Shown here one piece after another: positions 6,708-60,240 of a stretch of 64,000 nt of DNA. Every line of letters begins with the position of its first letter. Within the stretch, counting starts at the first letter, position 1. The notes beneath the pieces were generated by a model. That model had not been told where the DNA came from. It was given only the letters and a program-made list of their open reading frames with translations, and did not search any database. A program made the position numbers and the translations under genes. The stretch comes from Stegostoma tigrinum (taxonomy: Eukaryota). The DNA lies in NCBI RefSeq assembly GCF_030684315.1, contig NC_081358.1:93150458-93214457 (forward strand), written 5' to 3'.

Positions 6708-7860
6708 TAGAACATGGAACATAGAAAAGTACAGCACAGTACAGGCCCTTTGGCCAACGATGTTGTGCCATGGATTAATCCTAATCCAAAAATAAAATAA
6801 CCTAACCTACATTCCCCTCAATTCACTGCTGTCCATGTGCATGTCCAGCAGTCGCTTAAATGTCACTAATGACTCCGCTTCCACGACTACCACTGGCAAA
6901 CTATTCCATGCACTCACAACTCTCTGAGTGAAGAACCTTCCTCTGACGTCTTCCTCTATACCTTCCACCTAACACCTTAAAACTATGACCCCTCGTGGCA
7001 GTCAGTCCTGCCCTGGGGAAAAGTCTCTGGCTATCAACTCTATCCATGCCCCTCATTACCTTGTACACCTCGATCAGGTCCCCTCTCTTCCTCCTTCTCT
7101 CCAGTGAGAAAAGTCCAAGCTCAGTCAACCTCTCCTCGTAAGACAAGCCCTCCAGTCCAGGCAGCATCCTGGTAAACCTCCTTTGCACCCTTTCCAAAGC
7201 CTCCACATATTTCCTATAATAGGGCGACCAGAACTGGACACAATATTCCAAGTGTGGTCTCACCAGGGTTTTGTACAGCTGCAGCAAAACCTCGCGGCTC
7301 TTAAACTCGATCCCCCTGTTAATGAAAGCCAAAACACCATACGCTTTCTTAACAACCTTATCCACTTGTGTGGCAACTTTGAGGGAGCAATGCACTTGAA
7401 CACCAAGGTCCTGCTGTTCCTCCACACTGCCAAGAATCCTGCCTGTAATCCTATATTCATCATTTAAGTCAGACCTTCCAAAATGCATCACTTCGCATTT
7501 ATCCACGTTGAACTCCATCTGCCATTTCTCAGCCCAGCTCTGCATACTATCAATGTCTCGCTGAAGCCTGCAATAGCCCTCGATACTATCAACGACACCT
7601 CCAACCTTTGTGTCATCAGCAAACATACTAACCCACCCCTCAACATCCTCATCCAAGTCATTTATAAAAACTACAAAGAGCAGAGGCCCAAGAACAGACC
7701 CCTGCAGGACACCACTCAGCACTGACCTCCAGGCAGAATACTTACCATCTACAACCACTCTCTGCCTCCTGTCAGCCAACCAATTCTGAATCCAGACAGC
7801 CAAATCACCCTGTATCCCATATCTCCCAACTTTATGAATGAGCCTGCCGTGGGGAACCTT
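6708..7860 (-). mobile_element. Young 5'-truncated CR1/HER1 LINE with an open RT ORF, nested in an older CR1 (~6305-6700 and ~7860-9640)
   Basis: ORF 6901..7803(-) has GVLQGSVLGPLLF, FADD and RPHLEYCVQFWSP; (agaacat)n tail at ~6708-6725. Confidence 0.95.
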
Positions 7861-9640
7861 AGTTCTTCACTATCCTGTCTATCTGCAAATTCATTTTCAA
7901 GGAACTGTGAACCTGCACTCCGAGACCTCTCTGCTCAGCAAAACTCTCCAGGACCTTACCGTTAGGTATATAAGATTTGCCCTGGTTTGCCTTTCCAAAA
8001 TGTCGAACCTCAATTTATTTAAATTAAACTCCATCTGCTACTCCTCAGCCCCTTGGCTGGATTGATTGAGGTCCCCTTGTATTCTGAGGGTTTTGTTGCT
8101 GTCCACTACACCTCCGATCTGCAAACTTACTAACCATATCTCCTCGGTCCACATCCTAATCATTTACATAAAATGATGAAAAGCAGTAGACTCAGCACTG
8201 ATCCTTGTAGCACACCACAGGTCACAGGCTTCCAGTCTGAAAAGCAACCCTCCATCACCACCCTCTGTCTTCTACCTTTGAGTCAGTTCTGCGTCCAAAC
8301 AGCTGGTTCTCCCCCTGTTCCATATGATCTAACCTTGCTAACCAGTCTATCATGAGGAACCTTGTTGAATGCCTTCCTGAATTCCATACAGAGCATGTCC
8401 ACTGCTCTGCCCTCATTAGTAATGTCTGTCACTTCAAAAAATTCAATCAAGTTAGTGACATACAATTTCCCACTCACAAAGCCACTTTGACCATCCCTAA
8501 TCAGTCCTTGCCATTCCAAATACATGTAAATCCTATCCCCTAAGATTCCCTCCAGCAACTTGCCCACCACCAATGTCAGGCTCACCCCGGTCTATCGTTC
8601 CCTGGATTTTCCTTACCACCTTTCATGAATAGTGACACCATGTTAGCCAATCTCCAGTCTTGTGGCACCTCATCTGTGGCTGTCGACGATACAAATATCT
8701 CAGTATGGGGCCATCTTTTTTCTCACTTCCCACAGAGTTGTAGGGTACACCTGATCAGGTCCCAGGGATTTATCCACCTTTATGCATTTTAAGGCATCCA
8801 GCACCACCTCTTCTGGAATATGGACATTTTTCAAAATGTCGCTATTTATTTCCCCATGTTCTGTATCATCCATATCCTTCTCCAAAGTAAACATTGAGGC
8901 AAAATACTTGTTTAGCATCTCCCCCATGTCCTGCAGTTCCACACATAGATAGCCTTTCTGATCTTTAAAAGGGTCCTATCATCTCCTTAGTTACCATTTT
9001 GTCCTTAACATATTTGTATAATCCCTTTGGATTATTCTTAATCATATTTGCCAAGGCTATCTCACGTCCCCTTTTTGCCCTCTTGATTTCTCTCAAGTAC
9101 ACTCCTCCTGCCTTTATACTCTTAAGGATTCACTTGATCTCTGCTGACTATAACTGGTCGTTGGATAAACATATGGATGATAATGGACTAGTGTAGGTTA
9201 GATGGGCTTCAAGATTGATTCACAGGCTGAAGGACCTGTACTGCGCTGTAATGTTCTATGTTCTATACCTAGACATACACTTTTCTTCTTCTTAGCCAAA
9301 CCCTCATCTTCTCTCGTCGTCTAGCATTCCCTACACCTACCAGCCTTGCCCTTTACTCTAACAGGAACATACTGACCCTGGACTCTCGTTATCTCATTAT
9401 TGAAGGCTTCCCATTTTCCAGCGGTCATTTACCTGTGAACATCCGCCTCCAATCAACTTTTGAAAGTTCTTGCCTAATACCATAAAAATTGGCCTTCCTC
9501 CAATTTAGAACTTTAACTTTTGCATCTGATCTATCCTTTTCTAATCGCTATTTTAAATTTTTTGAATTATAGATCAGTGCCCCCAAAGTGCTTCCTCTTT
9601 GACACCTCAGTCACCTGCCCTGCCCTATTTCCCCAAGAGT
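7861..9640 (-). mobile_element. Older fragmented CR1 ORF2
   Basis: ORFs 8283..8585(-) (SLTLVVGKLLE, FRKAFNKVPH) and 8700..8942(-) (LNKYFASMFT, KSLGPDQVYP). Confidence 0.9.
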
Positions 9641-12292: not shown

Positions 12293-12550
12293 GTAAAATG
12301 TTCCATGGAGCTTTACAAGAATGCTTCCAAAAAAAACTTGACATTGAGCCACCCAAAAATATTAAGGCAGGTGCTGGAAAGGAACATGTTAAAAGAGGAG
12401 ATGTTAAAAGATAGTGCATTGGAAGGGTTAGACTGAGAATTTTAGAGCTTAACTCCTTACCAGCTGAAACCACTGCTGCTACAATGGGCTGATGAAAGCT
12501 GGAGACTTGCAAGAGGCTATTGTTGGAGAAACCAGATGCCTGAGCCGCTC

Positions 12551-12975
12551 TGTGACATCTACGACCGCGATCTTCTTGTCTTTCTTAAATATGAGATCGG
12601 GTTTCCATAGGGAGCCGTGTTTGTCGATTAGTCTGGGCTCCACATACGATGTCCAGCCGTACTTACTGACGTGTTCCTGCAACTGGTCAGCGATCTTGTT
12701 ATGGCGTTTGATTCGAGCGTTTTTAACGAATGGGCAGTATCCTGAGATGTGTGGTAGGGTCTCATTTGCCATCTCACATCTACGGCATAGTTTGTTTCTG
12801 TTCGGCCTACCTCTAGATATTGTGGTTCTCGTCGGGTATAGATTACACCGCAAGAGCACGCTGTTAATGAATCTAGAGGATTTTTGTTGTACTCCAGCCT
12901 TAGTCCAAGAGTTAGAGATCTTGTCATCTCTAAAGTACTGGATGCCCGTTCCCTGACATTCCAGCTTTTGCCTGA
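12551..12975 (-). mobile_element. Internal fragment of an RLE-type non-LTR retrotransposon (R2/NeSL/Utopia-like): CCHC knuckle plus the start of the PD-(D/E)xK endonuclease
   Basis: In ORF 12479..13069(-): QGTG...CRRC...ETLPHISGYC...RIKRHNKI...EPRL...KPDLIF...VVDVT. Confidence 0.9.
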
Positions 12976-13189
12976 GGTTTATTGGACTCGAAGTGGGGAG
13001 ACCCAAGACCATGGAAAAATTTGAAAATAAGGACAAGAATTTCAAAGTGGCAAGCACAGGGTGATGCATGAGCTTTTTTTTTTAAAAAGAGTTAGGACAG
13101 AAGCAGCATAATTTTGGAGTAGCTGAAATTTAAGGGAGACTATCTAAGAACGCACTGTGCCAACTGAGCCTAAATGTAACAGCTACAAG

Positions 13190-13570: not shown

Positions 13571-13814
13571 TCATCTTGGATGATGATTTCAGCAACGAGC
13601 TGAGACAGATCATGTGATAGTGGTGCAAGCAGGCAGTCTTGATCACAGACAGAATACAGAGTTAGATTCTCAGCTCAGGCTACAGGTGAACAATTTAATT
13701 CACTTTCTAAACAGTGACCAAGCAGAGGAATGGAATCAGTAGTGATGAAATTTGTAGCTGTGTCTCAAAGACAGATGAAAGATGAGCAAAATATTATGGA
13801 TGTTGAAGACCTGA

Positions 13815-13985
13815 CAGACAAACAGAAAGTGCTGGCTGTATATACCAGGTCTGGCAGCATCTGTGGAGAGAAAAACAGAGTTGATATTTCATGTCTGTGT
13901 TCTGATGAAAGGTCACTGACGCAAAATATCAACTTTCTCCCCCATAGATGCCACCAAACCCAAAAACAATTGTTTCAGTCTCCAT
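13815..13985. mobile_element. Short Penelope-like inverted-repeat element with a degenerate hammerhead core
   Basis: gtt-CTGATGA-aaggtcactgacg-caaaat-atc-aac near 13899-13933; arms are ggcagcatctgtggagag and ctcccccatagatgcc. Confidence 0.6.
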
Positions 13986-27178: not shown

Positions 27179-29498
27179 CTGAGATTTAAATAAAAATATT
27201 AAATTAGCTGATTTACAATTCTAGCACAGAACAGATTAAACAGAGCACACTTAACTCTTCTAACCACTCGTGTTATATTTCATAGGATGTACGGCACAGA
27301 AACGGGTCAGTTGGGTTAGTGGGTCAGTGCCAGTAGTTCTGAAGAAAAGTCATACCAGACTCAAAACGTTAATTCTCTTTCTCTCTCCACACATGCTACC
27401 AGACCTGCTGAGTTTCTCCAGTATTGCCTGTGTTTGTTTCATGCCACTGGTTCTGCTCAACCTGAACCTTCTCACCTTTTCTCACCTGACCTATTCAACC
27501 CTTCACTCCCTTCTCCCTCATCTGCTTGTTTACCTGCACCTTAAATTCTTCACTATAGCCTTTAATTAATTCCTGTGATAGTGAGTTTCACATTTTTTAA
27601 TACATTTTAGGTAAATTAATTACTTTTGAGTTCCCTACTGGATTTTGCAGTGAAAGCCTACTTTGACAGCCTCTAGTTATGCTCTTCCCCACATGAAGCA
27701 ACATTCTTTAAGCATTCTATCAAAATCTTTAGCAATTTTAAAAGGTCTCTTTTTAACCTTTTGACCAAGAATAACAGACACCATTTGTTAATCCTTTACT
27801 GATATGCATATCCACACATTTATGGTATCATCCTTATAAATCTTCTCTGTATTCTAAACAATACAACTCTAGTTTTCTCTGATAAGACACTTCCAAGTAC
27901 CGACCCAATATCTCATCTGTCTCACTGTCATACATTGTTCATAATGCTCCTATCGGGTACCTTTTCGTAACATTCCAGATGTTACACAAGTTGTTGCTGT
28001 ATAGCATTTTAATAATAATACTTCACAGACAACCAGAACTATATTCAGTACCGAGTACAGTCTAAGCAAGGTTTGTTACAGGTTTAGCATAGTGCGAAGT
28101 TTTCGATTCTATCCCTCTTGAAACAAAGACCAGTGTTTGGTGTGCTTCATCTTTAATGGCCTAGCTAGCTTTTGGCACAACTTTTAGCAATTGGTTTATT
28201 TATTCTCCCTGGAGCTCTTTGTACATCCACCTCACAGACTTTACTTCCAAGCAATAGTGGCCTCCCTATATTTCCTAGAAAATATAGTCTCTCTTAATTA
28301 TCTGTGTTGCAATTCATTTGCCAATTACTTTACCGCTCTGCAAGTTTATTAATACCCTTCCGTAATTTGTTGGCTGCCTTCCTCAGAACTGACTTTCCGT
28401 TCTCCCTTGCTCCTGCCCGAAGTAGTGTCATCTACAAATTGATAATTTGTTTTTGATTCTAGAGCTACTTATTTCCAATTTTCATTTCAGATTTCCAGCA
28501 TCCACAAAATCTTGCTTTTGTGATCTGCTAACCTTCTTCTTTCCTAACAATCATTAGGCACTTTATTTGTAGTCAATGTTGCAGAACTTCTCAGTTTCAT
28601 TGTGATGCTTAACACCACTCCAAAGTAAGACTTGTAAGTACGTCACCAGGAAACTCCATTATGAGATATGTATATCTCCACTGAATGTTACTAAGAAATC
28701 AATGTAATTTCTTTCAGATGAAAGAAATACAATGTAGTGCATCACTCATTCATACAATTTAGGGACATTACAAATACATGAATCGTGTGTGATACTTGCA
28801 ATGTTGCCACCTTATGTGTGTGCACTGCAAAGGTTCAGTCTGTAGTTTGAACTCATTCACATAACTACATGGAAGAATTAGTAATAAATATCTAAATTCC
28901 AGGTGAAAACAGGCTTAGATTGTGTTGCATTGACCTCAGTGAAGAAGCGTCTCGACTCGAAACGTCAACTTTCCTGCTTCTCTGATGCTGCCCGGCCTGC
29001 TGTGTTTCTCCAGCTCCACACTGTTATCTCTTTCAATTTTGGATAACCATTACAAAGCCAGTTATAAAGGCACGTTTCCCAATAGAATATTCCAAGGAGA
29101 CTCAGACTATCAAAAAAGATTTTACACCGAACCACTCAAGGGGACAGTAAGACAGACTTGATCAAAAGAAGTCAGACAAAGGTACAGAGGTTTAGGGAGG
29201 GGTTCCAGAGTTTAGGACCCAGCCACCTGAATGTTAATTGAAGATTAACTCATGGCAATTTGATATTGAAGGGCACCTTAAAAGCACCAACACCATCATT
29301 CTGTATGTGTTCATATGATGATGCAGGAAAATTCTTGCAATAGCATTTCATTGATCTAATAACTCCCTGGTTCATTGGCTGAATTAAAAATGTGCAACTG
29401 GTGAAATAGATATATGAAGAAGACATTCATCTTCAATACATTGAATGTATATCAATTTACACTTTAACTGCATTCAACTAAAAAATAACATTGCTTAC

Positions 29499-31180: not shown

Positions 31181-33554
31181 CTGCAACCTCTCAGTCTGGA
31201 ATATTTGGGACCAAGCCATTTCTGGATTACAGAGAGAGGTTAAAATTCTTAACCACAAGTATTAGAACCAGAAAACATCATGCATATAAATATTTACTGG
31301 AGACACAAAATACTGATAACATTTTGTGAAGTAATAATAAAATTTATTTTACTTATTCAAATATACATATTTATGCTTATAATTTCAAAGTACTGTATCA
31401 AAATGCTGTTGATGACTTAAAGGGAACAAGTTATTCCATACATTGCTTTGTTGCACCAATATTTAGAAGAGGCATAGGAGAAAATCGATGATAATTGATA
31501 GCAAGAGCAGTCAACTCTGGGTCCTTTGTTTCATTGACTCTGCTGGTTGATGGGATCGAGCTCAGCGATGTCGATGGTGTGTGCACAAACGACTTTCCAA
31601 CTTCATCAAACATTTGCTGCAGCTTCATTTGTTTCATGTGTTTTGGTTGCTCACTTATCAGTTTCTCTTGGATCCTGTGTACATGCATTATATCTTGCTG
31701 GCTTACAAAGCTTTGTTGCTCAAGAAAGCGAATGAAACGGGAAGCTAGACTGATCCCCTCTTCCAAGGTAATTTTCTCCCCAGTAGCATTATCTTCTTCA
31801 TTGCTGTTATCACTATCCTCAGACTTGCGGTGTAAAACTACCTGAATTGTCTCTGAACTTGTTACTTGTTGTACAACTGAAGTATTATCTTCACAATTTA
31901 ACCATGTCAAAATGTCTTCCTCATTTAAGTCACTTCCCATTTGCTTGGTACAACACAAGAGATCAGTCACCATTGCCTTGGCTTCACTTAAATTAAAACC
32001 CTCCGAGCTTTCCCCTGTGTCCTCATCGTTAAACACAATTACAGGACACAACTTACGCCATGCATTTTGTAAGGTTCTCCTTGTGACACTGTCCCATGCA
32101 TTTGCCAAACACCACATACCATCTTTGAGACTCAAGGCATTCTCAAAAGCATCAACACCACCAGTATTGTAGCGGCTCACAAGACGACGCAAAAAACTGT
32201 TTCTGTAGTGACTTTTCATTGACCTAATAACTCCTTGGTTCATTAGCTGAATTGAAGATGAGCAACTAGCAGGTAGAGAGGTAGGGAAGACATTATCAGC
32301 ATCTAATTGTTCTCTAGGGGGGTGAGCTGTGCAGTTGTTTAAAAGAAGGAGAATTTTGCAATCTGAAGCCAAGCCAACCTCTCTACAGTGTGCACGAGCC
32401 TCTGGAACAAAATGATTATGGAACCAATCACTCAGTATTTCCTGGGTGACCCTTGAACATTTATTGGCTTCATAAAGCACCGGCATGATTTTCATTCCTT
32501 TGAAAACACGAGGCTTAGGACATTTACCAACAACCAAAAGTTTACACTTATGTGTTCCAGCAACATTAGCACATGCGAGCACAGTAATTCTTTCTGCTGA
32601 TTCTTTGTAATCATGTACCATCATCTCCTCTGCACCAGCAAGCCTGTGTCGTGGCAGACATCTCCAGAAAACATCTGTCTCATCCACATTATATATTTGC
32701 TCAGGGCTAAGATCCTCATCCTTCATTAACATTGCAAAGTCAGTATGTAACATTCAACAGCCCGTTTATCTGCAGAAGTTTGTTCACCAGTAGCCTTGAG
32801 GTGAATTCCGTGCCTATGTTTAAACTTCTGCAACCAACCTTGAGAGTACTCACACACAGAATTAATTTTCATATCAGTAAGAAATTGTTTGGCCTTTTCC
32901 ATCAGCATTGCTCCCGAAATAGGGAGCCCCTCACTACGACGTTGCCTGAACCACTTATACAGGACATTATCATGGTCAGCAGATTTAGCACGATGCAGCA
33001 TTCTGCGTTCATTAATTCCTTTAACTGTGTCACTTTCAGCACAAAATTTAAATAACTTTTCACGCTGCTTCTTGATGTCATAAATTGTTGAGACCCCCAC
33101 ACCATATGCCTCACACAATGACTTTACTGAAGAACCTTTATCTAGTTTATTTATGATTTCAATCTTTTCTGAGATTGTAAGTGTAACATGCTTACGTTTT
33201 GCTGCACTTTTCTTAGATGCCATGGTGAAAGTTCAAAAGACAAACTATATCCTAAGAATAATTAGGTCTGCTCAAAATCACCCCTGCAGAGAGTTTGGGC
33301 GGGAAATGGCAGGCAACAGAGGGGATGAGGTGATCCTGTAGGATGGAAGAGTACAACAAAGTTAAAAAGTCACTCTGAGTACAAGACAAGGTTACAAAGT
33401 CACTCAACCCTTGAAATCCTGCGCTCTCCTCAACGAGGTGAACTCATGCCTTCCCGATTTGCTGCAGCACCTGGGTCTAGATCTGCTCAAAAGATATCCA
33501 GAGAACTGTTTTTATCTTTCTAAACAATAAATTTCCAGGCCGGAGAAGTTGCAG
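31181..33554 (-). mobile_element. Full-length Tigger/pogo-family DNA transposon (~2.37 kb) with decayed TIRs, inserted into a CR1 fragment
   Basis: TIRs at 31181-31201 and 33533-33554 (18/22 aligned positions identical). The flanks rejoin as CR1 'aaagctctgattaggccgca...gagtattg' (KALIRP..EYC). Confidence 0.85.
31431..33223 (-). CDS. JRKL/TIGD-like pogo transposase (HTH_psq + CENP-B HTH + DDE_1), split by one 1-nt frameshift at ~32745; intact gene or recent pseudogene
   Basis: ORF 32726..33223 (KRKHVTLTISEK, LYKWFRQRRSEG, SQGWLQKFKHRHG) and ORF 31431..32753 (IYNVDET, RITVLACAN, LLLNNC, QLMNQGVI) overlap. No internal stop codons. Confidence 0.88.
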
Positions 33555-35505: not shown

Positions 35506-35666
35506 AGATAGTAGCAACTGCAGATGTTGAAGAATCTGAGATAACAAAGTGTAGAGCTGGATGAACACAGCAGGCCGAGGAGCAGGAAGGCTGACGTTTC
35601 GGGCCTAGACCCTTCTTCAGAAAAGAAGGCCTGCTGTGTTCATCCAACTGTACACCTTGTTATCTC
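35506..35666. mobile_element. Short Penelope-like inverted-repeat insertion with a 14-bp TSD and a minus-strand hammerhead core
   Basis: TSD tgt(a/g)tctctttatg at 35492-35505 and 35667-35680. Core CTGAAGA-A-GGGTC-TA-GGCCC-GAAAC-GTC at 35620-35593(-). Confidence 0.8.
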
Positions 35667-38892: not shown

Positions 38893-39106
38893 GAGATAAC
38901 AAAGCATGGGGCTGGAGGAACACAGAAGGCCAGGTAGCATCAGAGGAGCAGGAAGACTGACGATCGGGTCAGGGTCCTCTTCTGAAGAAGGGTCCAGAGC
39001 CGAAACATCAACTTTCGTGTTCCTCTGACGCTGCCTGGCCTGCTGTGTTCTTCCAGCTCCACACTTGGTTATCTCGGACTCCAGCATCTGCAGTTCTCGC
39101 TATCTC
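38893..39106. mobile_element. Short Penelope-like inverted-repeat insertion in a CR1 3' end, with TSD
   Basis: aaagtagaattgag is duplicated at 38882-38895 and 39107-39120. CTGAAGA-A-GGGTC-CA-GAGCC-GAAAC at 38982-39006. Confidence 0.8.
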
Positions 39107-39955: not shown

Positions 39956-40080
39956 GCCTCAGTGTGCTCTATTTCCTTTTTCTGGTGTTTCTGCTGTTCC
40001 TGAATTTTGAACAAGTGAAATCTGTCATGTATTGGCTGGATCCTAATCTACGCTATGCCACACGTGAAGCAGATGTAATG
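39956..40080 (+). CDS. PTDSS1: PTDSS1 coding exon 4
   Basis: [42 protein letters not shown]; 125 nt. Confidence 0.96.
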
Positions 40081-41848
40081 GTATGTAGAACAGGAGTGCA
40101 TTTAGATTATCCAGTTGCTCCCTGTTGTAATGATACTTTCATGAAGATTGAAAGCCTGGCTGTTATCATTTGTCATTCCTTAGCATTTTCACCATGATGA
40201 AGAACCTAAGACACGCAAACAGTATTGTTTTTAAATTCATTGTTTTTTTTGCATTCATTTACAGTGTCTTACTGTATTTAACACTTCTGTAATCTTATTT
40301 TTCTTCACGTTCACTACATAGTTAATCAAGTGACTGACTCATATGATATTTGTAAACATCACATGTTTTATTGTTTCAGTTGATGTGAAGTTCAATTCTC
40401 AAATGATCAGAATATTATTTCATGGATGAGTAGAGATGCTGTTATTTTGCAGTAAATTGAATCAATGGCAAATATGCTGTACATGAAATAAAATACTCTG
40501 GAGTTAGTCAAACTCAATTTAACAGATGAGCATTGATGCATTTAGAGCCTTAGATGTACAAATGGTAACATTTGCATTGCAACGGTGACTAGTCAAAGCA
40601 TGTAACCAGAATTAATTTAGAAATATTTTTCTTTAGTCATCACTTGTTGAAGAATTCTAAATTGATTTCTTCTCATGTTGTCCTTTGACAGCATATAACC
40701 AAATGTATATGTAAACAACTGTTATGTAAATCCTATCATTTATTAGTAAGGTGAGAAGGATGTTTTGCAATTTGGAATCAGGCACCTGCCTATTCTGTTG
40801 TAAATAAGTAACCTTTGAAAAGTAATTCTATGGAAATGCTTGGTTAAGATTGCTAGTTTGTTCTAATATAGGTCAGTGCCTAACAAGGAGACCCAAGTTC
40901 AACTAAAGTCACATCTCGTATTTTGCGATTGAGTTTTCTTCATTTCTCTGAACATTATGATTAACATTTCAGGGAGAAAGTTAAAACTGCAGTGTTGTTG
41001 AGAGGAACTGGTCTTGTTGAAGTTACTTTCTCCTAGCTCAGTCAAGGAACAACATTCATGATTTTATGGAAATGTGAATTTAATGTTTCTTGGCTGACTT
41101 GTGGTTGAAATGCATGGGACTTTTTTAAAAAATTATTATTCTAAATTTTATGCATTTAATCAATTTTTTTTGTTCCACGATTTTACCCTCTCTTTCCCAA
41201 GGATTTTATACACACTATAAAAATCTCAAATAAGACAATGCCTCATATAATTATGCCCTTTGGATCAGCTCGAGACTGCCTTCCTCCTAGGTACCCTGAA
41301 GGTCAGTTACATTAAAAACCTTCCCAAAGTTGGTATTTTCCATGACAAGGGGAAGGAAGAAAATCTCTGCTTAATTAACGTTGGATGGCTTTTAGTAAAC
41401 ATACTGAGCTAACCAAACCACTGCATCAGATTGTGCATCTGTTGGGAGAATAATTTCTTCATTTTAAGTGGGGAGAAGCTTGATCTTTGGGAATGAATTG
41501 CATTCTCAATGAGATTCTTCTTTGAAAATACTTATACTTGGCTCCCTTTTGTTTCAATACCTATGTATAATGACAGCTCTGCAAACTTGCCAACCTGGTT
41601 ACTATGTTTGTTGTTCAAACCATGTAAACAGAAATCCAGTTAAAAGTAACCAAGCCTTTTAGTGCCTTTGAGAACGGTTCTTTCTTTAGTGTGCTGTTTC
41701 AACATTTCAAGACTACCTTGTTTTAATATTTTCTCTGATTTTGAAATTATATGAGAAGAATGCTGGATAAGGCATTCATCTATGCCAGGCTTTTACCATG
41801 TCTGATTTTGAAGATTATAGCAATTTTGCTGTATTTTGTTTTTAATAG

Positions 41849-42052
<204 letters not shown>

Positions 42053-43476
42053 TAACTAAATTACAGATTGTATTGTTAATCAAGACCTCCTCAAGATTTT
42101 GAAGTATGTTGTGTTATTTTGGACTACATCTGCAACTTGACATGTCAATCTCAACTTGATTGTTTTAAATGAGGAATGGTACAGAATAGGAACAAGACAT
42201 TGTCTTTTAACTGCCAAACCAAGTTACAGAGTGACAGTAAATTTTCTTGTGCTGTTACGCAAAGCCATATGACTAGCAGATACTTGGTGTTTGTTTTATT
42301 ATTTTGATTTTTACAAATAATCAAGAAACAGTCTAGGTTCATGTCCCAATCTCTGCTGAGTAAGCAGGTTTTAAACAATTGCTATGGAAAATGGTAACAC
42401 GCTTTCCTAGACTAATGGGGGAATAATCAAAGTCCCTGATCCTGTTTGCAATCCAGTTTCGTACTGCTTGGAATAAAACTGTCATGATTTCAAAACATGG
42501 AAAATTTGTATGAATTTATAAATCTCAGTGCTATTTAGGAATTAACATCAAATGCCTGTGATGCCCATGATGGAATACAAAATCATTTGACTTGGTAAAT
42601 TTGCACTCTCCCTTATAAGAGTTAATGATGGTGGAAACTTATTGGGAAAAGTATGCTGCTTTTATGAAAATTTAGTTTAGTTTAACTTGCTCAATTACAG
42701 TTTGCAATCTCTTTTGTATATGCTAAGACACTTTAATCCCATGGAGACTATGGCAACCGTTGAGTTTACAGGTTGATTCCATGAGCATTTGCTCAATAGG
42801 CATTGTCCATCCAACGCTATAATTGATCTCCAAGCATTTTGTAAATTAACCAAGAATTGTTCCCTGGAGAGTATTATGTTCTGCTGGAACTATTCTTTAT
42901 AGATCTACAGAAGGCATTAATTTGTAACCGTTCTTTGTGGTAGCGGCTCCAGTTTTCAACTATGAATTGCGTAGTAGAATAGCATTTATTTGGTGATCTA
43001 CTTTTAAAATTGGTTCTCAAGATGCATTCAATCTTGGCAAGATCCCATTTATTCACATAAACTTTTCCATGTTTCTGCTGAGAGGTCAGGATAGTTTCCT
43101 TCTCAGTGAAGAATGGAAAGGGCAGAGTAATCCCTAGTAACAACACCATGTTGTTATGATTCCAACAGATGATCATCCTGGAAATGTCAAATCCCAGAAA
43201 CCTGGCTTGATTAGTCATTCATTTAAAGTTTTGTGGTTGGTCAGTGTAGTGATCAGTCACTGAAACTCATGCATTCTCATAACAACAGAACATGTGTTTA
43301 TTGTACAAAAGATAACAAAAACAAACAAAGGTATACAAATATAGAAGACAGTTAGAAAGATCTTAACAAATACATTAAAACAGAGAGCTTCAACCTGTTT
43401 TCTAACACTCTGTTACAGAGACTTAATCCGAGAGAAACAGGAACTTTCATGCCCATCTCAACCCAGTAAGTTTTTT

Positions 43477-43746
43477 GGTAGGCAAACAGGAGGCTGGAAG
43501 AACACAGCAAGCTAGGCAGCATCTGGAGGAAAGGAGCAGTCAACGTTTCGAGTATTACCCTTCTTCAGGACTGTATGTGGTGGTAGGGGACTCAGGAGCT
43601 CCCCCTACCCCCACATCCAGTCCTGAAGAATGGTAATACTCGAAACGTTGACTGCTCCTTTCCTCCAGATGCTGCCTGCCTTCTTTTGTTCTTCCAGCCT
43701 CCTGTTTGTTTACCTTGGATTCCAGCATCTGCAGGGATTTTTTTGT
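43477..43746. mobile_element. Penelope-like tail-to-tail inverted-repeat insertion (~105-bp arms) with a minimal hammerhead motif on each strand
   Basis: Arms at ~43484-43590 and ~43601-43708. Imperfect TSD cccagtaagtttt / cccattaagcttt at 43462 and 43747. Confidence 0.85.
43618..43654 (+). ncRNA. Minimal type I hammerhead ribozyme motif (mirror copy at 43537-43573 on the minus strand)
   Basis: cagtc-CTGAAGA-a-(t/g)ggtaatactc-GAAAC-GTT-gactg: 5-bp stem I, stem II and a palindromic ACGT stem III. The minus copy has the better-paired stem II. Confidence 0.65.
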
Positions 43747-44019
43747 CCCATTAAGCTTTTACTTAATTAACTTCTCCACTTTCTTTTTCTTGGAATTGGA
43801 GGCAGTTTTACAACTCCTGAGTCTGCTAGCATGAGCTCCTCATAGTTTTGATAAGCTAAACTTTCTCGGTTCTAACAATTAAATTTCTATCTAAACTGGT
43901 CTGGCTTGTTAGTTCCACAGAGTAGAAACTATTTCTGCAGTCACTGATTGGTTTCCCTGAACTGAGTTAATTATTCTGCCAGAAGAAATTGTTCTATTTT
44001 GTGAATTGAGGACTGGATT

Positions 44020-44865
44020 AAACATAGAACATAGAACAGTACAGCACAGTACAGGCCCTTTGGCCAATGATGTTGTGCTGACCTATCATCCTACAAAGAT
44101 CAAACCACCCTGCATACCCTACATTTTACTATCCTCCATGTGCCTATCTGCGAGTTGCATAAGAGCCTCTGAAGTATCTGACTCCACTACCACTATTGTC
44201 ATTGCTGTCCACATGCCCACTACTTTGTGTGTAAAGAACCTACCTCTGACATCTCCCCTATACCTTTCTCCAATCACCATAACATTATGCCCCCTTGTAA
44301 TAGTCATTTCTGCCCTGGGGAAAGTCTCTGGCTATCCACTCTATCTATGTCTCTCATCGCCTTGTACACCTCTATCAAGTCATCTCTCATCCTTCTTTGC
44401 TCCAATGAAGAAAGCCTTAACTCCTTCAACCTGTCCTCATAAGACCTGCCCTCGAGACCTAGAACTTTCTATTTTGAAGTGAAAACTGAACTGAATTTTT
44501 TGATTCGTAGAGTCATGCAGCACAGGAAGTCCAAGTTGTCTATGCCAACAAAGTTGCTCAAGCTAAACTAGTGCCACTTGCCTCCATTTGGCCAATATCC
44601 CTTTAAACCTTTCCTTTTCATGTAACTCTCCAAATGTCTTTTCAATGTTTTAACTACATCTGCTACATCTACCACTTCTTCTGGCAGTTCTTTCCACAAA
44701 TGAACACCTTTTTCTGAAAAACTTGCCCCTTGGGTCCCTTTCAAATCTTTCTCTTCTCACCTTAAAAATAAGCCCCCTGGTTTTGAACTCCCCCACCGTA
44801 GGGAGAAGACATTTTCTATTCAATTTATATATACCCCTCATGATTTTACAAACCTCTATAAGCAA
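44020..44865 (-). mobile_element. Two adjacent CR1 3' fragments (~44020-44460 and ~44508-44865)
   Basis: ORFs contain RYRGDVRGRFFTHKVV and LIEVCKIMRG; (agaacat)n and agagtcat tails. Confidence 0.9.
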
Positions 44866-45383
44866 TGCCCTAATGTGTTTATTGTATCAGTTATGAACTC
44901 AGCATTATAAACATTTTATCCGTCATCTCCCAGGTGTTTGACTGAAGTCATGTGCCATCCTGGAATTGTGTATCTAGGTCACTGTCCAAATGATTTTTTG
45001 ACCTTTCTTTACAGAAAAAGTAAATCTTGACATAACTGACCGAAGTCTATCTGTCTCAATTTATTTTATTAAAAATACAAATTCCAAAATTTAGGTTTTG
45101 TACGCATTACATTGCAGTGACCTTGGGGCTGTGATGGATTTTTAAATGCTTTCTTTCTACACCTGTTTGAGACTTGGTGTAGTGGTGAGGTATTTAGGGA
45201 TATTTTCTAATCAACCTGTTCAGATTTGTTATTACACAGCTGTGGAGCAGATGAGACATGAACCTAGCTTCCCTGGCTCAAAGCTAGGGACACTAACATT
45301 GTACTATTGGAACCCATTGAGACACATTTATATTATTCTGTTAATAAATTTTAAGCTGTTCAACTGCTATAAGTTAACATTGA

Positions 45384-45584
<201 letters not shown>

Positions 45585-46639
45585 TAAGTGTCCTGAGTTT
45601 TTGTTTGTTCCACAATGCAAAGAATAACAGTACATTAATTGTCACAACAATTTGTGCTGGTGTTTATACACTATATGGGCAGCTTCTTACATCCTCATCG
45701 GACCCCACCCATAAGCATTGCCTTCCACTCATATGCACTTATCAGGTTTCCATTTAAAAGCATCTGTGTTATTTAACTCAGCTACATCTCCTGCGCCCTG
45801 GGTGAAAACCCTCCTCTTGAATTTTCCATTGCACGTATTAATCACTTGCCTTATGTATATGGCCTCTATTAGTTTTTTGGAGCACAAGTGAAAGCATTTT
45901 TCACTATCTTTACCCAAATAAAACTTCAAAATTCTAAAGACCTGTATCAGAGCAGCCCATAGTTTTCCTTTTCTAAAAGAAAGAACCCCAAACTTACCAG
46001 CCTTTCCTGAACATTAGCATTTCTGATATAAGACCAAGAGATGTAGGAGCAAATATAGGCCAATCGCCTCATCGAATCTACTCCACCATTCGGTGACATC
46101 ATGATTGATCTGATAATCCCCAACTCCACGTCCCTGACTTTTCCTCACAGTCCTTGATCCCCTTACTGTTTAAAAATTCAGTTTTGGCCTTGAATATACT
46201 TAATGACCCAGTATCAGAGGCCTCCTGTGGTAAAGAATTCTAAGATTCGATACCTTCTTAGACAAAAATAATTCTTCACCACCTATGTCTAAGTGTATGA
46301 CCTCGTATTCTGAGATTATGCCTTCTGGTGCTAGACTCTGCTGCCTTTTTTGTTGATTCTTTCCTTGTCCTGTTACTACTACTGTATCTGGCCTTGAACC
46401 ATCAAGTCTTTTGTCATTTTAATTTCCCCTCTGTCCCACCTCATCAGATCTTCTTTTGTTCTTTTCCAAACCTCCTTGTTTAACGTGCCGCTTGATGAGT
46501 ATTTTCAATGTTTCCTGTTTCCTTCTTTTCCATTCTGTGGTTTACTTCTTCAATTATTTCTTCTCTCCCTTATGCCCTCCCCCCACCGCCCCAACAATCT
46601 TTTCTGTCTTGTATGTCTAATACTGTGTGTCTTTATCAG

Positions 46640-46781
46640 GGCAATACACACGACCAGTGGAAAGCTGAAACGGGCAGTGTTGCAGTTTACTCCAGCCAGC
46701 TGGACATACGTTCGCTGGTTTGACCCAAAATCCTCCTTCCAGAGAGTGGCTGGAATCTACCTCTTCCTAATTATCTGGCAG
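46640..46781 (+). CDS. PTDSS1: PTDSS1 coding exon 7
   Basis: [47 protein letters not shown]; 142 nt. Confidence 0.97.
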
Positions 46782-47819
46782 GTAAAAAATAAATCTGCAG
46801 AGCGTACGTGACTTTTCATTCTGACAAAGATGTTCCATTGTGACTTATTGGGTGGAACTTTCAACTTCAATAAGGCTAGAAATTGGCTGAAAGCAGATCC
46901 ACCACCCGTTGTGCATCATGTTGCGCAGATGGTTGATCGGCCTCAGCATGCTACTTGATAGCTCAGATCCATTTCTCCTAAAATTGCACCTCTCACTTTT
47001 TCGTCACTTTGTCTAACCTCATGTCGTAGTGTCGATGCTGTAGGAAGTGTGGGATAAAAATCAAGGAAAAAGAGAAAACACTGTGAGAAGGAAGGAGCAC
47101 AGTGGGAGAAGGCAAAACAAGTGAAGAGGAGAGAAAGGGAGGTGTAGCCATGCCAGTAAGATAACTGTGTAACCTCGGACCCATTTTCTCACTTCTATAA
47201 ATGAGTGGTTTGTGATTTATTGAAACCTTTTTTTTAATTGGTTTGGCCTGAGCTGCAGTATTTGAAAGGACGTTAAGTTGAATGTTTTGCTTGGGTTTGC
47301 TGGCTTGGTCACTTGCACAGTGCTTGAGACAGTGAAATATATGAGACTATTTAAAGTTTTTAAGAAGATTTTTTTCGGCGGGCACGTCTACAACCTTGTG
47401 TGAGACTGTGTCGTTCCTTATGGGAATGTTGACTGACATCTAACTGTATAGATCTTTGCTGAATTTGGAGCCTTGAACTGGTGGGATGAAAACCTGATAA
47501 TTTAAGTGCGTCTAGTACTTATTAATTAATTTAAATTTAAATCTGGGTGCAGTGGAAGGAGATGGAAAGCTGGTGCTTATATTGTTTGGAATTTTCAACA
47601 TAGATACTATATATGGTAGGAATTCTTGAAGTTCTAAGGATAGCAACAGCCTTTTTAGCCTGTTTCATTTCCTCTTTGTGATACTGGCAATTGAAGTTAA
47701 TGTAACTGTGAAGGATGTGGTCTTATCAAATTTCACAGCTTTTTGTTAAATGTGTGGTGAGTTAAGTGCAAATCTGATGAAGGATTTGCATTTCTACCAA
47801 CAGTATGCTACTTTATTGA

Positions 47820-48410
47820 TCCCTTTTTCCACTGAACTGATGTTGAAACCCCTCTTCCTTGCCTTTGTTATCTCCAGACTCCAATATTCAGGGCACTCCT
47901 GGCTCGTTTCCAGCATAAACTTCACAAACTCGGGTTCATTCAAAACTCTAAGGCCCGTGTCTTACTTTACAACTAGTCCCATTCCTCTATCACCTGTGTG
48001 CTTGCTGATCTTCATTGTCTTCTGGCCAAGCATCATTGTGATTTTAAAATTTTCATCCTTGTTTTCAGATTCCTCCATGATTTTGCTGTCTTGTGATTTC
48101 TGTAGTTTGCTGAGATAGCGGCACTCGGCTAATCATGCCAACTTCAGCTCCCCCATTTTAACTTCTGCAGCATTGGTGGATGTCTTTCAGTTGCTAGACC
48201 TCAAGCTCTGGAATACTTCCCTTGAATCTCTCTGCCAATCTCTCTTTCCTCCTTTAAGACACTCCTTAAGACGTACCACTTAGTGCCTGGTCACCTGACC
48301 TAATATCAATCAATGTGACTTGCTGTCATACTTTGTTTTATAATGTTCCTATGAATTGTCTTGGGACATTTCGTATTTATATTGCATCCTTAATGAAATT
48401 GTTGTTTTAA
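47820..48410 (+). mobile_element. L2-like LINE 3' fragment
   Basis: AFVISRLQYS motif (L2 RLDY-like), ctctggaa remnant and a ttgttg tail. Confidence 0.65.
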
Positions 48411-48690: not shown

Positions 48691-48937
48691 AAAAACTGGC
48701 AGAACTGCAAATGCTGTAAATCAGAAACACAAACAGAAATTGCTGGAAAAGCTCAGCAGGTCTGGCAGCATCTATGGAGAGAAATCAGAGCTGACGTTTC
48801 AGACCCAGTGACCCTTACTAAGGACTCAAGCAACGTGTTGTGAAGAAGGGTCACTGGACCCGAAACATTAACTCTGCTTTTTCTCCACAGAATCTGCTAG
48901 ACCTGCTGAACTCTTCCAGCAGGTTTTGTTTCTGTCA
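48691..48937. mobile_element. Short Penelope-like inverted-repeat insertion with TSD
   Basis: Flanks caggtatattact / caggtacatttct. gTGAAGA-A-GGGTC-ACTG-GACCC-GAAAC at ~48840-48866. Confidence 0.75.
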
Positions 48938-52300: not shown

Positions 52301-54050
52301 TGAAAATCTGCAGTAGAGAATCCCAAAGACTGTTAGCCCATTGACTGACCAATTATTCTGAAACTGTGACTCCAGGTTGGAAACTCTTCAGTCAGGGGAA
52401 AATTTCTTGCTGGTGTCTAGCCTGTCAAATCCCTTAAGAGTTTTATGTGTTTCAATTAGATCACTTCTCATTCTTCTAAATTCTAGGGGAATATAGGTCT
52501 ACTCTACACAATAAATCTACATAGGACAATCCTGTCATCCCAGGAGTCAGTCTAGTGAGCCTTCGTTGCAATCCCTCCAAGGCAAGTATATCCTTCCTTA
52601 AGTAAGGAGTCTAAAACTTCATAGAGTACTCTGGGTCTGGTCTCATCAGAGCCCTGTATGATTATGGTAAGACTTCTTTACTCTGAAACTCCAAGCCCTA
52701 TATGATAAAGGCTAGTATTCTAGTTTCTTCATGAAGCTTGCTGTATCTACATGTTGGCTATCCGTTATTCGTATTCAAGGTCACCCAGGTCCCTCTGACT
52801 AGTAACATTTAGCAGTCTACCACTACAAGCACATTAATTAGAGGCAGAAGCAGGCTGTTGGGACCCTCAAACCTTCTCCGCCATTCAGAATGGTTGTTGC
52901 TAATCAGGTTGTGTTTCAAATTTCCCATTCACCTATGATAATCTTTGATTCTCCTGCCTAATATCATCATCTACCTCAGCCTTACAAATAATCCCACTGA
53001 TCCTGCCTTCAGTACCTTCTAAGACAGGGTGTTCATTGTTTTTTAAAGTTCTATTTCTGTACTCTTCCTTTCTAAGTGAATAAGTTCGTGTTTCCTTGTC
53101 CAGTCACTCATAACATTTACGTTCCTCATTTTCCCACCTATTGTTAGTGAACCTAGTTTGTAAAATCAGTCCCCTCAAGTATATCATTGATTTGGATTGT
53201 AAATGGTTGCTGCTCAGGCACTAGTCTTTGTGGGCCAGCTAGCTATATACAGCCTGCAAACCCATAAATTCCCATTCATTCCTACTGTTTGTTTTCTGTG
53301 AGTGGTTAATCCAACATTCTTTCTGATATATTACCCTCCATGCCATGTGCAGTAATTTTGTGTAATAACATCATGTGTGGCACTTCAAGGAAGGGATTTT
53401 GAAAAATCCACATACGCCGCATCTGTTGATTTCCCCTCGTCAAACGGTTTTCCATTAGACTGAAAACAGAAAATGCTGGAAATCACAGTGGGCCAGACAG
53501 CATCTGTGGAGAGAAAGCAAGCTAACATTTCAAGTCTAGATGACTTTAGTTTGCTCTGATGAGTCATCTCAACACAACAGTATCTTGCTCTCTCTCCACA
53601 GATGTTGCCTACCTGCTGTGATTTCCAGCATTTTGTTTTTCGTTTTTGGTACAGATTCCAGCATCTGCTGTAATTTGCTTCTTGCATGTCAATTCTCATT
53701 CATCATATGATTTTTGAAATAGTTCAATTACATTTGCTATATTCCAGTTAATTAGAACTGTTCTAAAATCTTGAGTCTTCTGTAAAATTAAAACAATGTG
53801 TGCATACCCTTTTAAAACCCTTTGATGCAGACCATCACATCTAGGGGATGTGTCAGCTTTCAAAATCATTATACTTCTCCTGCACTATTCCTTTACTACT
53901 GCTAATTTCGTTAATTTTCTCATTCTGACTAGACTCTTGATTCACTACTATTTCCAGAATGTTCTTTGTGTCTTCTGCTGTGAAGACAGACAGACAGACA
54001 TTACAAACAAAAACTGTCATTTCCTTATTTTGTAATCTGAGAAAGGACAA
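49400..54050. mobile_element. Cluster of degenerate CR1 fragments in both orientations, with embedded Penelope-like remnants (~51255-51540 and ~53460-53680)
   Basis: Recurrent CR1 motifs (RSCLT, DFSK, tggaatgaacttccagagg) and gagtcat-type tails. Confidence 0.7.
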
Positions 54051-56319: not shown

Positions 56320-56477
56320 CGAGATAATGGGAACTGCAGATGCTGGAGAATCGAAGATAATAAAGTGTGAAGCTGGATGAACACAGCAGGCCAAGCAGCA
56401 TCTCAGGAGCACAATCTTGCGCTCCTGAGATGCTGCTTGGCCTGCTGTGTTCATCCAGCTTCACACTTTATTATCTC
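56320..56477. mobile_element. Young Penelope-like fold-back insertion: perfect 56-bp inverted repeat, 10-nt spacer, 10-bp TSD
   Basis: Arms 56355-56410 and 56421-56476 are exact reverse complements. taaacatatc occurs at 56310-56319 and 56478-56487. Confidence 0.92.
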
Positions 56478-58829: not shown

Positions 58830-60240
58830 AGAGATAGAGACCTACAGCACAGAAGAATCTGCACTGGTCAGAAACAGCTACCTAGATATTCAAGTCCCAC
58901 TTTATATCGTGCTTGGCTGATACCTTTGCATGCCTTGGCATTATAAGTGCACATCTAAATACTTCTTCAATGTTTTGAGGAGTTCTGCCTCTACTATCCT
59001 TGCAGCCAGGAAATTCCAAATTTCCACCAAATCCATCACCTCACATTTAAGTAGACTGAATTCTCTTTGCCAATGATCAGCCTGTCTGATCTGTTTATCT
59101 GTATTCTCTGTTGATCTAAGGCTGTCCTCCTCACTATTTACCAAACCACCAATTTTTGTAACATCTGCAAACATATTGATCAACCCTCCTACATTCAAAA
59201 CTAAATCATTTATATAAAACACAAATAGCAAGAGACCAGCACTGACCCCTGGGAACCCCAATGGACGCAGATTTCCAATCAGAAAAACACCCCTCAATGT
59301 GCCATTTAGCGAATTTTGAATTCAATTTACCAAATTTCCTTGGATGCCATGGCCTGTTGCCTTTGCTATCAGTCTCCCATCCAAGTAGACTACGCTGAAT
59401 ACATTGCCCTCATCTACATACCTGGCCGCCTTTTCAAAAAACTCAATCAAGTTGGTCAGACAGAGGCTCCCTTTAACAAAATCACGCTGATTGTTCCTGA
59501 TTAATACCTGCCTCTCCAAATGCAGGTGGAAATGAGTACCCTACAGGGTTTGAGCACCAGAACAAGGAAGTCTTGCTGTAGCTATACAGGGTGAGCCCAC
59601 CCCTGCAATCTTGTGCAGTTTTGATCTCCTTACCTACATTCCCTTTGATATGTAGGGACCTCTGAGTGGTGACACAGTGGTATATATTAGAATGAACATT
59701 GTGTTTTAATGAAGATACAATTGCCATGGAGGGAGTGTAGTGAAGACTATCTAGACTGATTCCTGGAATGATTGATTTTGATGTATAAGGGGTGACTGGG
59801 TTGAATGGGAGTGTATTCATTGGAGTTTAGGAGGGTAAAGGCAGATCTCATTGAAATGTGTAAAATTCTGACAGGGCTGGACAGACTGGATGTGTGTATG
59901 ATGTTTTCCCCGGCTGGGGCGGTAGGGGTGTGTCCAGAACAAAGCTGGGTGATCACACTTTCAGGACGGCAGGTGATTATAGGCCGAGTTTGTTATTTCT
60001 TCACACAAGCGCTGGTTATTTCTTCACACAAATGCTGACGAACCTGTGGAATTCTGTACCAGGAACTCTGTGGGCGCAATGTCACAGAAATTATTTCAGA
60101 AAGAATTGGTGGATTTCTGGAAGCTAAACGTGTCAAGGGGAATGGAGAGAAAGTGGGCATGTGGCAATGTGGTAGAGAATCATAAAGAATGGCAGAATGT
60201 TCTCAATAGACCAAGTGGGCTCATCCTGCTCCTGTTTTAG
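58830..60240. mobile_element. CR1 fragments (minus ~58830-59520, plus ~59560-60240)
   Basis: ORFs contain FYINDLVLNVGGLINMFADVTKIGG, SLCLTNLIEFFE and RVKADLIEMCKIL. Confidence 0.85.

Follow-up and report, generated by a model that had tools for sequence, protein, structure and literature searches.

Complex insertions of endonuclease-positive (EN+) Penelope-like elements (PLEs) carry a head-to-head inverted terminal copy, a target-site duplication, strong 5′ truncation and a 30–40-bp tail on one end only (PMC3846280, PMC8557442). An inverted pLTR with a 31-bp tail and a 9-bp duplication has been called a 'typical Penelope structure', for which self-priming has been proposed (PMC3846280), and a CX2-5CxxC zinc-finger linker between reverse transcriptase (RT) and endonuclease (EN) marks the Neptune elements and is common to Nematis (PMC8557442). 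The minimal type I hammerheads of metazoan PLEs have an extra base between positions 9 and 10.1 and a highly conserved G10.1-C11.1 pair; a single minimal motif gives no detectable cleavage, dimers give low cleavage, and in Schistosoma pairs of minimal motifs lie on opposite strands, 100–700 bp apart (PMC4209133). Tandem retrozymes, whose units are able to dimerise, are under-represented in Xenopus introns (10.64898/2026.07.22.740005). In the Anolis Poseidon element PAc, both target strands are cut and extended, two RT start sites bound the tail, the ribozyme does not cleave without the element protein, and no RNA reads end at its site (PMC11167929).

The fold-back considered here lies in an intron of PTDSS1 in Stegostoma tigrinum, within a window of 64,000 nucleotides of contig NC_081358.1. 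It is an ordinary member of a common, already published structure type, since such fold-backs are frequent in this genome and have been described before. The head-to-head inverted terminal copy, the target-site duplication and the strong 5′ truncation are those of the EN+ PLE complex insertions, as is the one-sided tail, which measures 32 nt here and 31 nt in Pen2a_Av. Unlike those insertions, the PTDSS1 fold-back has a duplication of 14 bp instead of 8–10 and arms of just ~115–150 nt, and units of this kind abound in the genome. Its hammerheads share with those of PMC4209133 the lack of a helix III loop, the palindromic positions 15.2–16.2, the extra base at 9/10.1 and a helix I of 5 bp, and differ from them in a helix II of just 4 bp with a 3-nt loop, in a spacing of 44 nt between the two motifs and in a sense copy that lacks G10.1-C11.1. 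The location of a hammerhead near the terminus is shared with PAc, whose two reverse-transcription start sites likewise define a tail; PAc, however, belongs to the Penelope/Poseidon clade, whereas the PTDSS1 family has a C-x4-C-x2-C linker as in Neptune/Nematis. Like the non-LTR retrozymes, the unit is short, non-coding and PLE-derived and carries a type I hammerhead in a vertebrate genome, but retrozymes are arranged head-to-tail with two motifs per RNA, whereas this unit is head-to-head with one motif per strand. A tandem retrozyme is rejected for this locus, as the arms are inverted and the unit has no direct repeat within 40000–48000. The main text of PMC4209133 makes no mention of sharks, and the supplements of the cited papers may list motifs of cartilaginous fish. 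A search of titles and the starts of abstracts, a scope that leaves out most subscription journals and repeat databases, found no report of this PLE family in sharks.

The fold-back locus and its host gene

Matches to Pfam PF03034 on the + strand flank the fold-back on both sides in a search of the shark's own genome and correspond to phosphatidylserine-synthase exons. The two exons align to residues 148–200 (E 1.8e-32) and 251–299 (E 8.2e-27) of phosphatidylserine synthase 1 and fit it far better than synthase 2, which confirms the placement in a PTDSS1 intron (42008–45431) proposed in the earlier note. The annotated features are as follows.

41849–42007, + strand: upstream PTDSS1 exon, residues 148–200 of the solved protein
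43462–43475, + strand: left copy of the 14-bp target-site duplication, 12/14 identical to 43747–43760
43477–43589, − strand: inverted, tail-less, 5′-truncated element 3′ end (pLTR), with 5/113 differences from the majority of 29 relatives
43537–43573, − strand: antisense minimal type I hammerhead motif; helix I of 5 bp, helix II of 4 bp closed by G10.1-C11.1, core intact
43590–43596, no strand: head-to-head junction of ~7 nt without clear arm assignment, from alignment to relatives
43597–43714, + strand: direct 5′-truncated element 3′ end, pairing with the left arm from 43602, with 7/113 differences from the majority
43618–43654, + strand: sense minimal hammerhead motif; core and helix I intact, G10.1 replaced by U at 43631, predicted cut after 43649
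43715–43746, + strand: 32-nt tail on one arm only, from alignment to relatives; the same asymmetry in 54/57 fold-backs
43747–43760, + strand: right copy of the 14-bp target-site duplication, pairing with the left copy
45432–45583, + strand: downstream PTDSS1 exon, end approximate, joined to the upstream exon in contigs from presumed-RNA runs

The inverted repeat (43477–43589 and 43602–43714) has arms of 113 nt that are 91% complementary across a 12-nt spacer, and its predicted fold is a 113-bp hairpin with a 46-bp perfect run, at −207.3 kcal/mol (z −23.7; 0/200 shuffles equally stable). The hairpin put at ~105 bp in the earlier note is confirmed as a predicted structure. The bounds given there, 43477 to 43746, were nearly right: the unit occupies 43476–43746, and the 14-bp duplication around it had been missed. 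The last 32 nt of the family 3′ end are missing from the left arm and form the tail of the right arm, and the junction adjoins short palindromic words.

Ten of the 113 paired arm positions differ between the arms. Against the majority of 29 relatives the right arm diverges by 6.2% and the left by 4.4%, compared with a mean of 6.4% for the relatives themselves, a set picked by likeness to the right arm. There are no compensatory pairs and only one shared change among 11 changed positions; the two arms decayed independently, and homogenisation of one arm by the other is rejected on that single shared change.

The duplication and the 10 arm differences make an assembly artefact unlikely. DNA contigs span the right insertion junction with 42 letters inside the unit and enter the left one by 29 letters, where the rule demanded 31. 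Contigs from two presumed-RNA runs, which bear a different organism label than the DNA runs, join the two exons and leave the unique intron sequence uncovered, a join that does not imply splicing of the insertion-bearing allele.

Several other repeats occupy the window. Directly 3′ of the fold-back in the same intron, read depth signals very high-copy repeats at 44021–44900. A Pogo/Tigger-type transposase on the − strand (31431–33232) consists of two overlapping long frames, one of 168 aa with CENP-B_N and HTH_Tnp_Tc5 and one of 440 aa with DDE_1 (E 1.2e-37); it is fairly intact and could be young or domesticated. LINE reverse-transcriptase fragments lie on the − strand at 6901–7866 (RVT_1, E 2.4e-15) and 58941–59321. 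At 12479–13081, also on the − strand, a 200-aa frame without a Pfam match has a CCHC-like motif and, after it, a stretch of restriction-like endonuclease type; we take it to resemble the end of an R2-like non-LTR element.

Parent element and abundance of related fold-backs

When the right arm was searched against the genome, 40 of 2204 first-look candidates were scored, and among these the matches at other loci are 86–90% identical. Some copies of the same subfamily extend more than 1.2 kb upstream into broken RT, CxxC linker and GIY-YIG frames, which end ~200 nt before the ribozyme. One longer copy (L032) matches RVT_1 at E 6.5e-4, and another (L035) matches GIY-YIG at E 0.008 with its ribozyme end ~200 nt further on, both below the curated Pfam cut-offs; among the 12 family peptides scanned with Pfam, 8 hit no relevant family and every score fell under the curated cut-off. 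The RT fragment groups with RVT_1/HTH_animal clusters at 0.97 in the Atlas and finds no match in the PDB. The linker is intact as C-x4-C-x2-C in 6/20 long loci and present in a relaxed pattern in 10/20. Because the longer copies continue into RT, linker and GIY-YIG coding sequence, the arms are identified, from sequence, as doubly truncated 3′ ends of an EN+ PLE, and the element is likely of the Neptune type. The Penelope-like origin named in the earlier note is upheld by these collinear copies. The PTDSS1 fold-back itself has no ORF, and none would be expected between arms that are both cut to ~115–150 nt.

The abundance of such fold-backs was gauged in dynein heavy-chain genes, whose position and orientation came from two Pfam searches; 16 blocks of 100 kb within them comprised 1,564,918 readable bases (1.565 Mb). 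A profile of the element end, which mostly matched sister subfamilies, gave 384 matches in this sample (199 sense, 185 antisense), only one of them a close copy of the PTDSS1 subfamily. Head-to-head neighbours lie at most 60 nt apart in 57/116 cases and tail-to-tail neighbours in 0/112; exactly one arm is tailed in 54 of the 57 tight fold-backs, and the ribozyme is covered on both arms in 15. In the subfamily of the PTDSS1 fold-back, 9/27 further loci are tight fold-backs; these loci were picked by the part downstream of the cut, with two duplicates and the PTDSS1 locus dropped and three lacking a passing alignment counted as misses. Scaling 57 units per 1.565 Mb to the 3.2-Gb genome (835 contigs) suggests around a hundred thousand similar units, a rough figure drawn from dynein gene bodies only. 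The window alone holds four more head-to-head pairs of related Penelope-like ends (38896–39097, 48701–48921, 53473–53676 and 56331–56462) and single element-end matches at 13799–13894, 27335–27437, 28940–29015 and 35515–35622. Palindromic units of 220–720 nt were also seen flanking fetched loci (L009, 2429–3149; L015, 2704–2926; L016, 2220–2439; L027, 2045–2431).

Hammerhead motifs and masking by the antisense arm

The family majority motif has a 5-bp helix I, CUGAAGA, an extra A, a helix II of 4 bp with a 3-nt loop, GAAAC and GUU. Both PTDSS1 arms hold the core (CUGANGA / GAAA / NUH) with the 5-bp helix I, and the letters and coordinates reported earlier for the two motifs (43618–43654 plus, 43573–43537 minus), with the predicted cut after U17 at 43649, are correct. 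The same is true of the stem I pairing and of the minimal type I layout, including the extra A after A9, which is part of the family majority and a conserved feature in PMC4209133, and the palindromic helix III that could form only in a dimer. A complete motif on each strand had been claimed as well, and this stands for the minus copy alone. In the plus copy, U10.1 faces C11.1 at a position where 26/29 relatives have G, the descriptor finds no stem II adjoining the core, and the predicted helix II pair probabilities drop from 0.8–0.97 to 0–0.34. The minus helix II is closed by G10.1-C11.1, in keeping with the earlier remark that stem II forms better there. An Rfam scan, corresponding to the hammerhead scan that the earlier note had proposed, returned 18 matches at E<=10, none of them to a hammerhead family; every one lies below the gathering score, and most are generic miRNA hairpins.

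An intact core occurs in only 4/54 related motifs, and both motif CpGs, which the PTDSS1 fold-back keeps in both arms, are kept in just 6/54. Two such CpG-keeping arms would be met about 1 time in 80 if the arms are independent. With thousands of candidates and a first reading that selected intact motifs, such retention is expected now and then. Protection of CpGs by fold-back geometry is rejected in the young subfamily (46/60 kept versus 160/214, p 0.87), as is a CpG island (local observed/expected 0.17–0.23).

The earlier note held that the sense ribozyme could cut the PTDSS1 pre-mRNA and that intronic fold-backs persist because the antisense arm masks it. Masking itself is sound as physics, because the helix I pair probability falls from 0.97 in the isolated motif to ~1e-42 in the full fold-back; the antisense arm is thus predicted to sequester the sense motif completely, as had been proposed. 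Cutting of pre-mRNA by lone motifs should make unmasked copies scarce in sense orientation. The strand test covers dynein genes only and mainly a sister subfamily, whose helix I has 2 bp against 5 bp in the PTDSS1 subfamily. Among the 280 matches that cover the ribozyme region in the gene-body sample, those without an inverted partner within 100, 500, 2500 and 5000 nt are in sense orientation in 118/239, 107/217, 66/128 and 37/74 cases, and at 2500 nt (p 0.79, CI 0.43–0.60) the sense strand shows no deficit of unmasked copies that span the ribozyme. With helix I required to have at least 4 bp, the descriptor fits 2/92 cores of the sample and no shuffles, too few to test, so helix I of at least 2 bp was used, which gives 69 near-intact motifs. 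Their unmasked members lean towards antisense (18 versus 12/30 sense), a lean that is not significant (p 0.36), and the CI of 0.23–0.59 would accommodate a mild sense depletion.

That lean, the predicted complete masking and the core and CpGs kept in both arms speak for an off switch. Set against them are a sense share near one half at all four distances, the small fraction of tight fold-backs in which both arms span the ribozyme, the U10.1 of the sense copy and the inactivity of single motifs in PMC4209133. Independent arm decay also tells against it, and 5′ ends in the youngest subfamily, a sister of that in PTDSS1, do not accumulate at the predicted cut (5 within 2 nt, compared with 7 in the average 5-nt window). 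The off switch is therefore very improbable and is not borne out as an explanation of intron tolerance. Antisense masking of PLE hammerheads in introns was not found in titles and abstract starts, a scope outside most subscription journals.

Host co-option of the hairpin as a double-stranded RNA element (an editing substrate, a small-RNA source or a splicing modifier) would be independent of the ribozyme and could draw on a pre-mRNA hairpin of 113 bp that includes a 46-bp perfect run. Equivalent hairpins are very numerous in the genome, however, the arms have diverged much like those of their relatives, and all miRNA model matches stay below the gathering score, so we give this possibility very little credence. 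The locus is in all probability explained by a single insertion of two short head-to-head PLE 3′ ends with a duplication, in which both hammerhead motifs are likely inactive passengers and the hairpin is likely a neutral by-product.

Two side observations concern the motifs. Many 5′ ends in the youngest subfamily cluster between 6 nt before the ribozyme core and ~50 nt after it, which could be due to RT stalling or merely to upstream subfamily differences. The gene-body sample also contains another, unrelated minimal-hammerhead family (for example in blocks from C26, C3 and C2), whose helix II is 6 bp long; an inverted partner lies 219–1730 nt away in 9/10 of its motif matches.

Route of insertion

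For the single insertion, the element endonuclease would make a staggered cut with its nicks ~14 nt apart, and each nicked strand would likely prime a separate cDNA, starting at the tail end in one case and ~32 nt inside in the other. Both cDNAs would stop just past the ribozyme and then be joined, after which the arms decay independently. In the pre-mRNA, the antisense arm comes before the sense one and would pair with the sense motif and shut it in, a motif presumably nearly silent anyway: the inverted arrangement gives one motif per transcript and hence no dimer partner, and G10.1-C11.1 is lost.

The youngest subfamily bears on how the two arms arise. It contains 35 tight fold-backs among 196 alignments, exactly one arm is tailed in 35/35, and 30/35 have a 9–17-bp target-site duplication, versus 0/35 swapped controls. 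Of these fold-backs, 17 have the longer 5′ reach on the tail-less arm, 13 have it on the tailed arm, and in 5 the arms are equal. The alternative of a snap-back, in which the inverted arm of the same element comes from self-priming on one template, was put forward in PMC3846280 on the basis of palindromes seen at inverted junctions. It accords with the palindromic words at the PTDSS1 junction, with the junction gaps of −4 to +11 nt in 34/35 young fold-backs and with the 5 equal arm starts. A snap-back copy cannot exceed its template, however, and the tail-less arm is the longer one in 17/30 unequal cases and in 12/18 when the difference is at least 10 nt, a signal that could be blurred by subsequent loss of sequence at the hairpin tip. 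A single tail in every case, with either arm free to be the longer, is not predicted by single-template self-priming, and we consider the snap-back rather unlikely. From the longer tail-less arms we lean slightly towards two separate primings joined at their truncated ends, the main alternative being later tip deletions. Whether the fold-backs at large are a fossil record of PLE insertion, in which both strands prime cDNAs at RT start sites ~32–35 nt apart that are then joined head-to-head, we judge to be evenly balanced. Titles and abstract starts held no dual- or twin-priming account of Penelope inverted copies.

The PTDSS1 locus alone is of minor importance, and the regularity of the whole class is of greater use. 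From the absence of strand bias, lone minimal hammerheads seem to cause host pre-mRNAs little damage, and the arm asymmetry, together with the 9–17-bp duplications, provides cheap genomic tests of the still unsettled mechanism of Penelope insertion.
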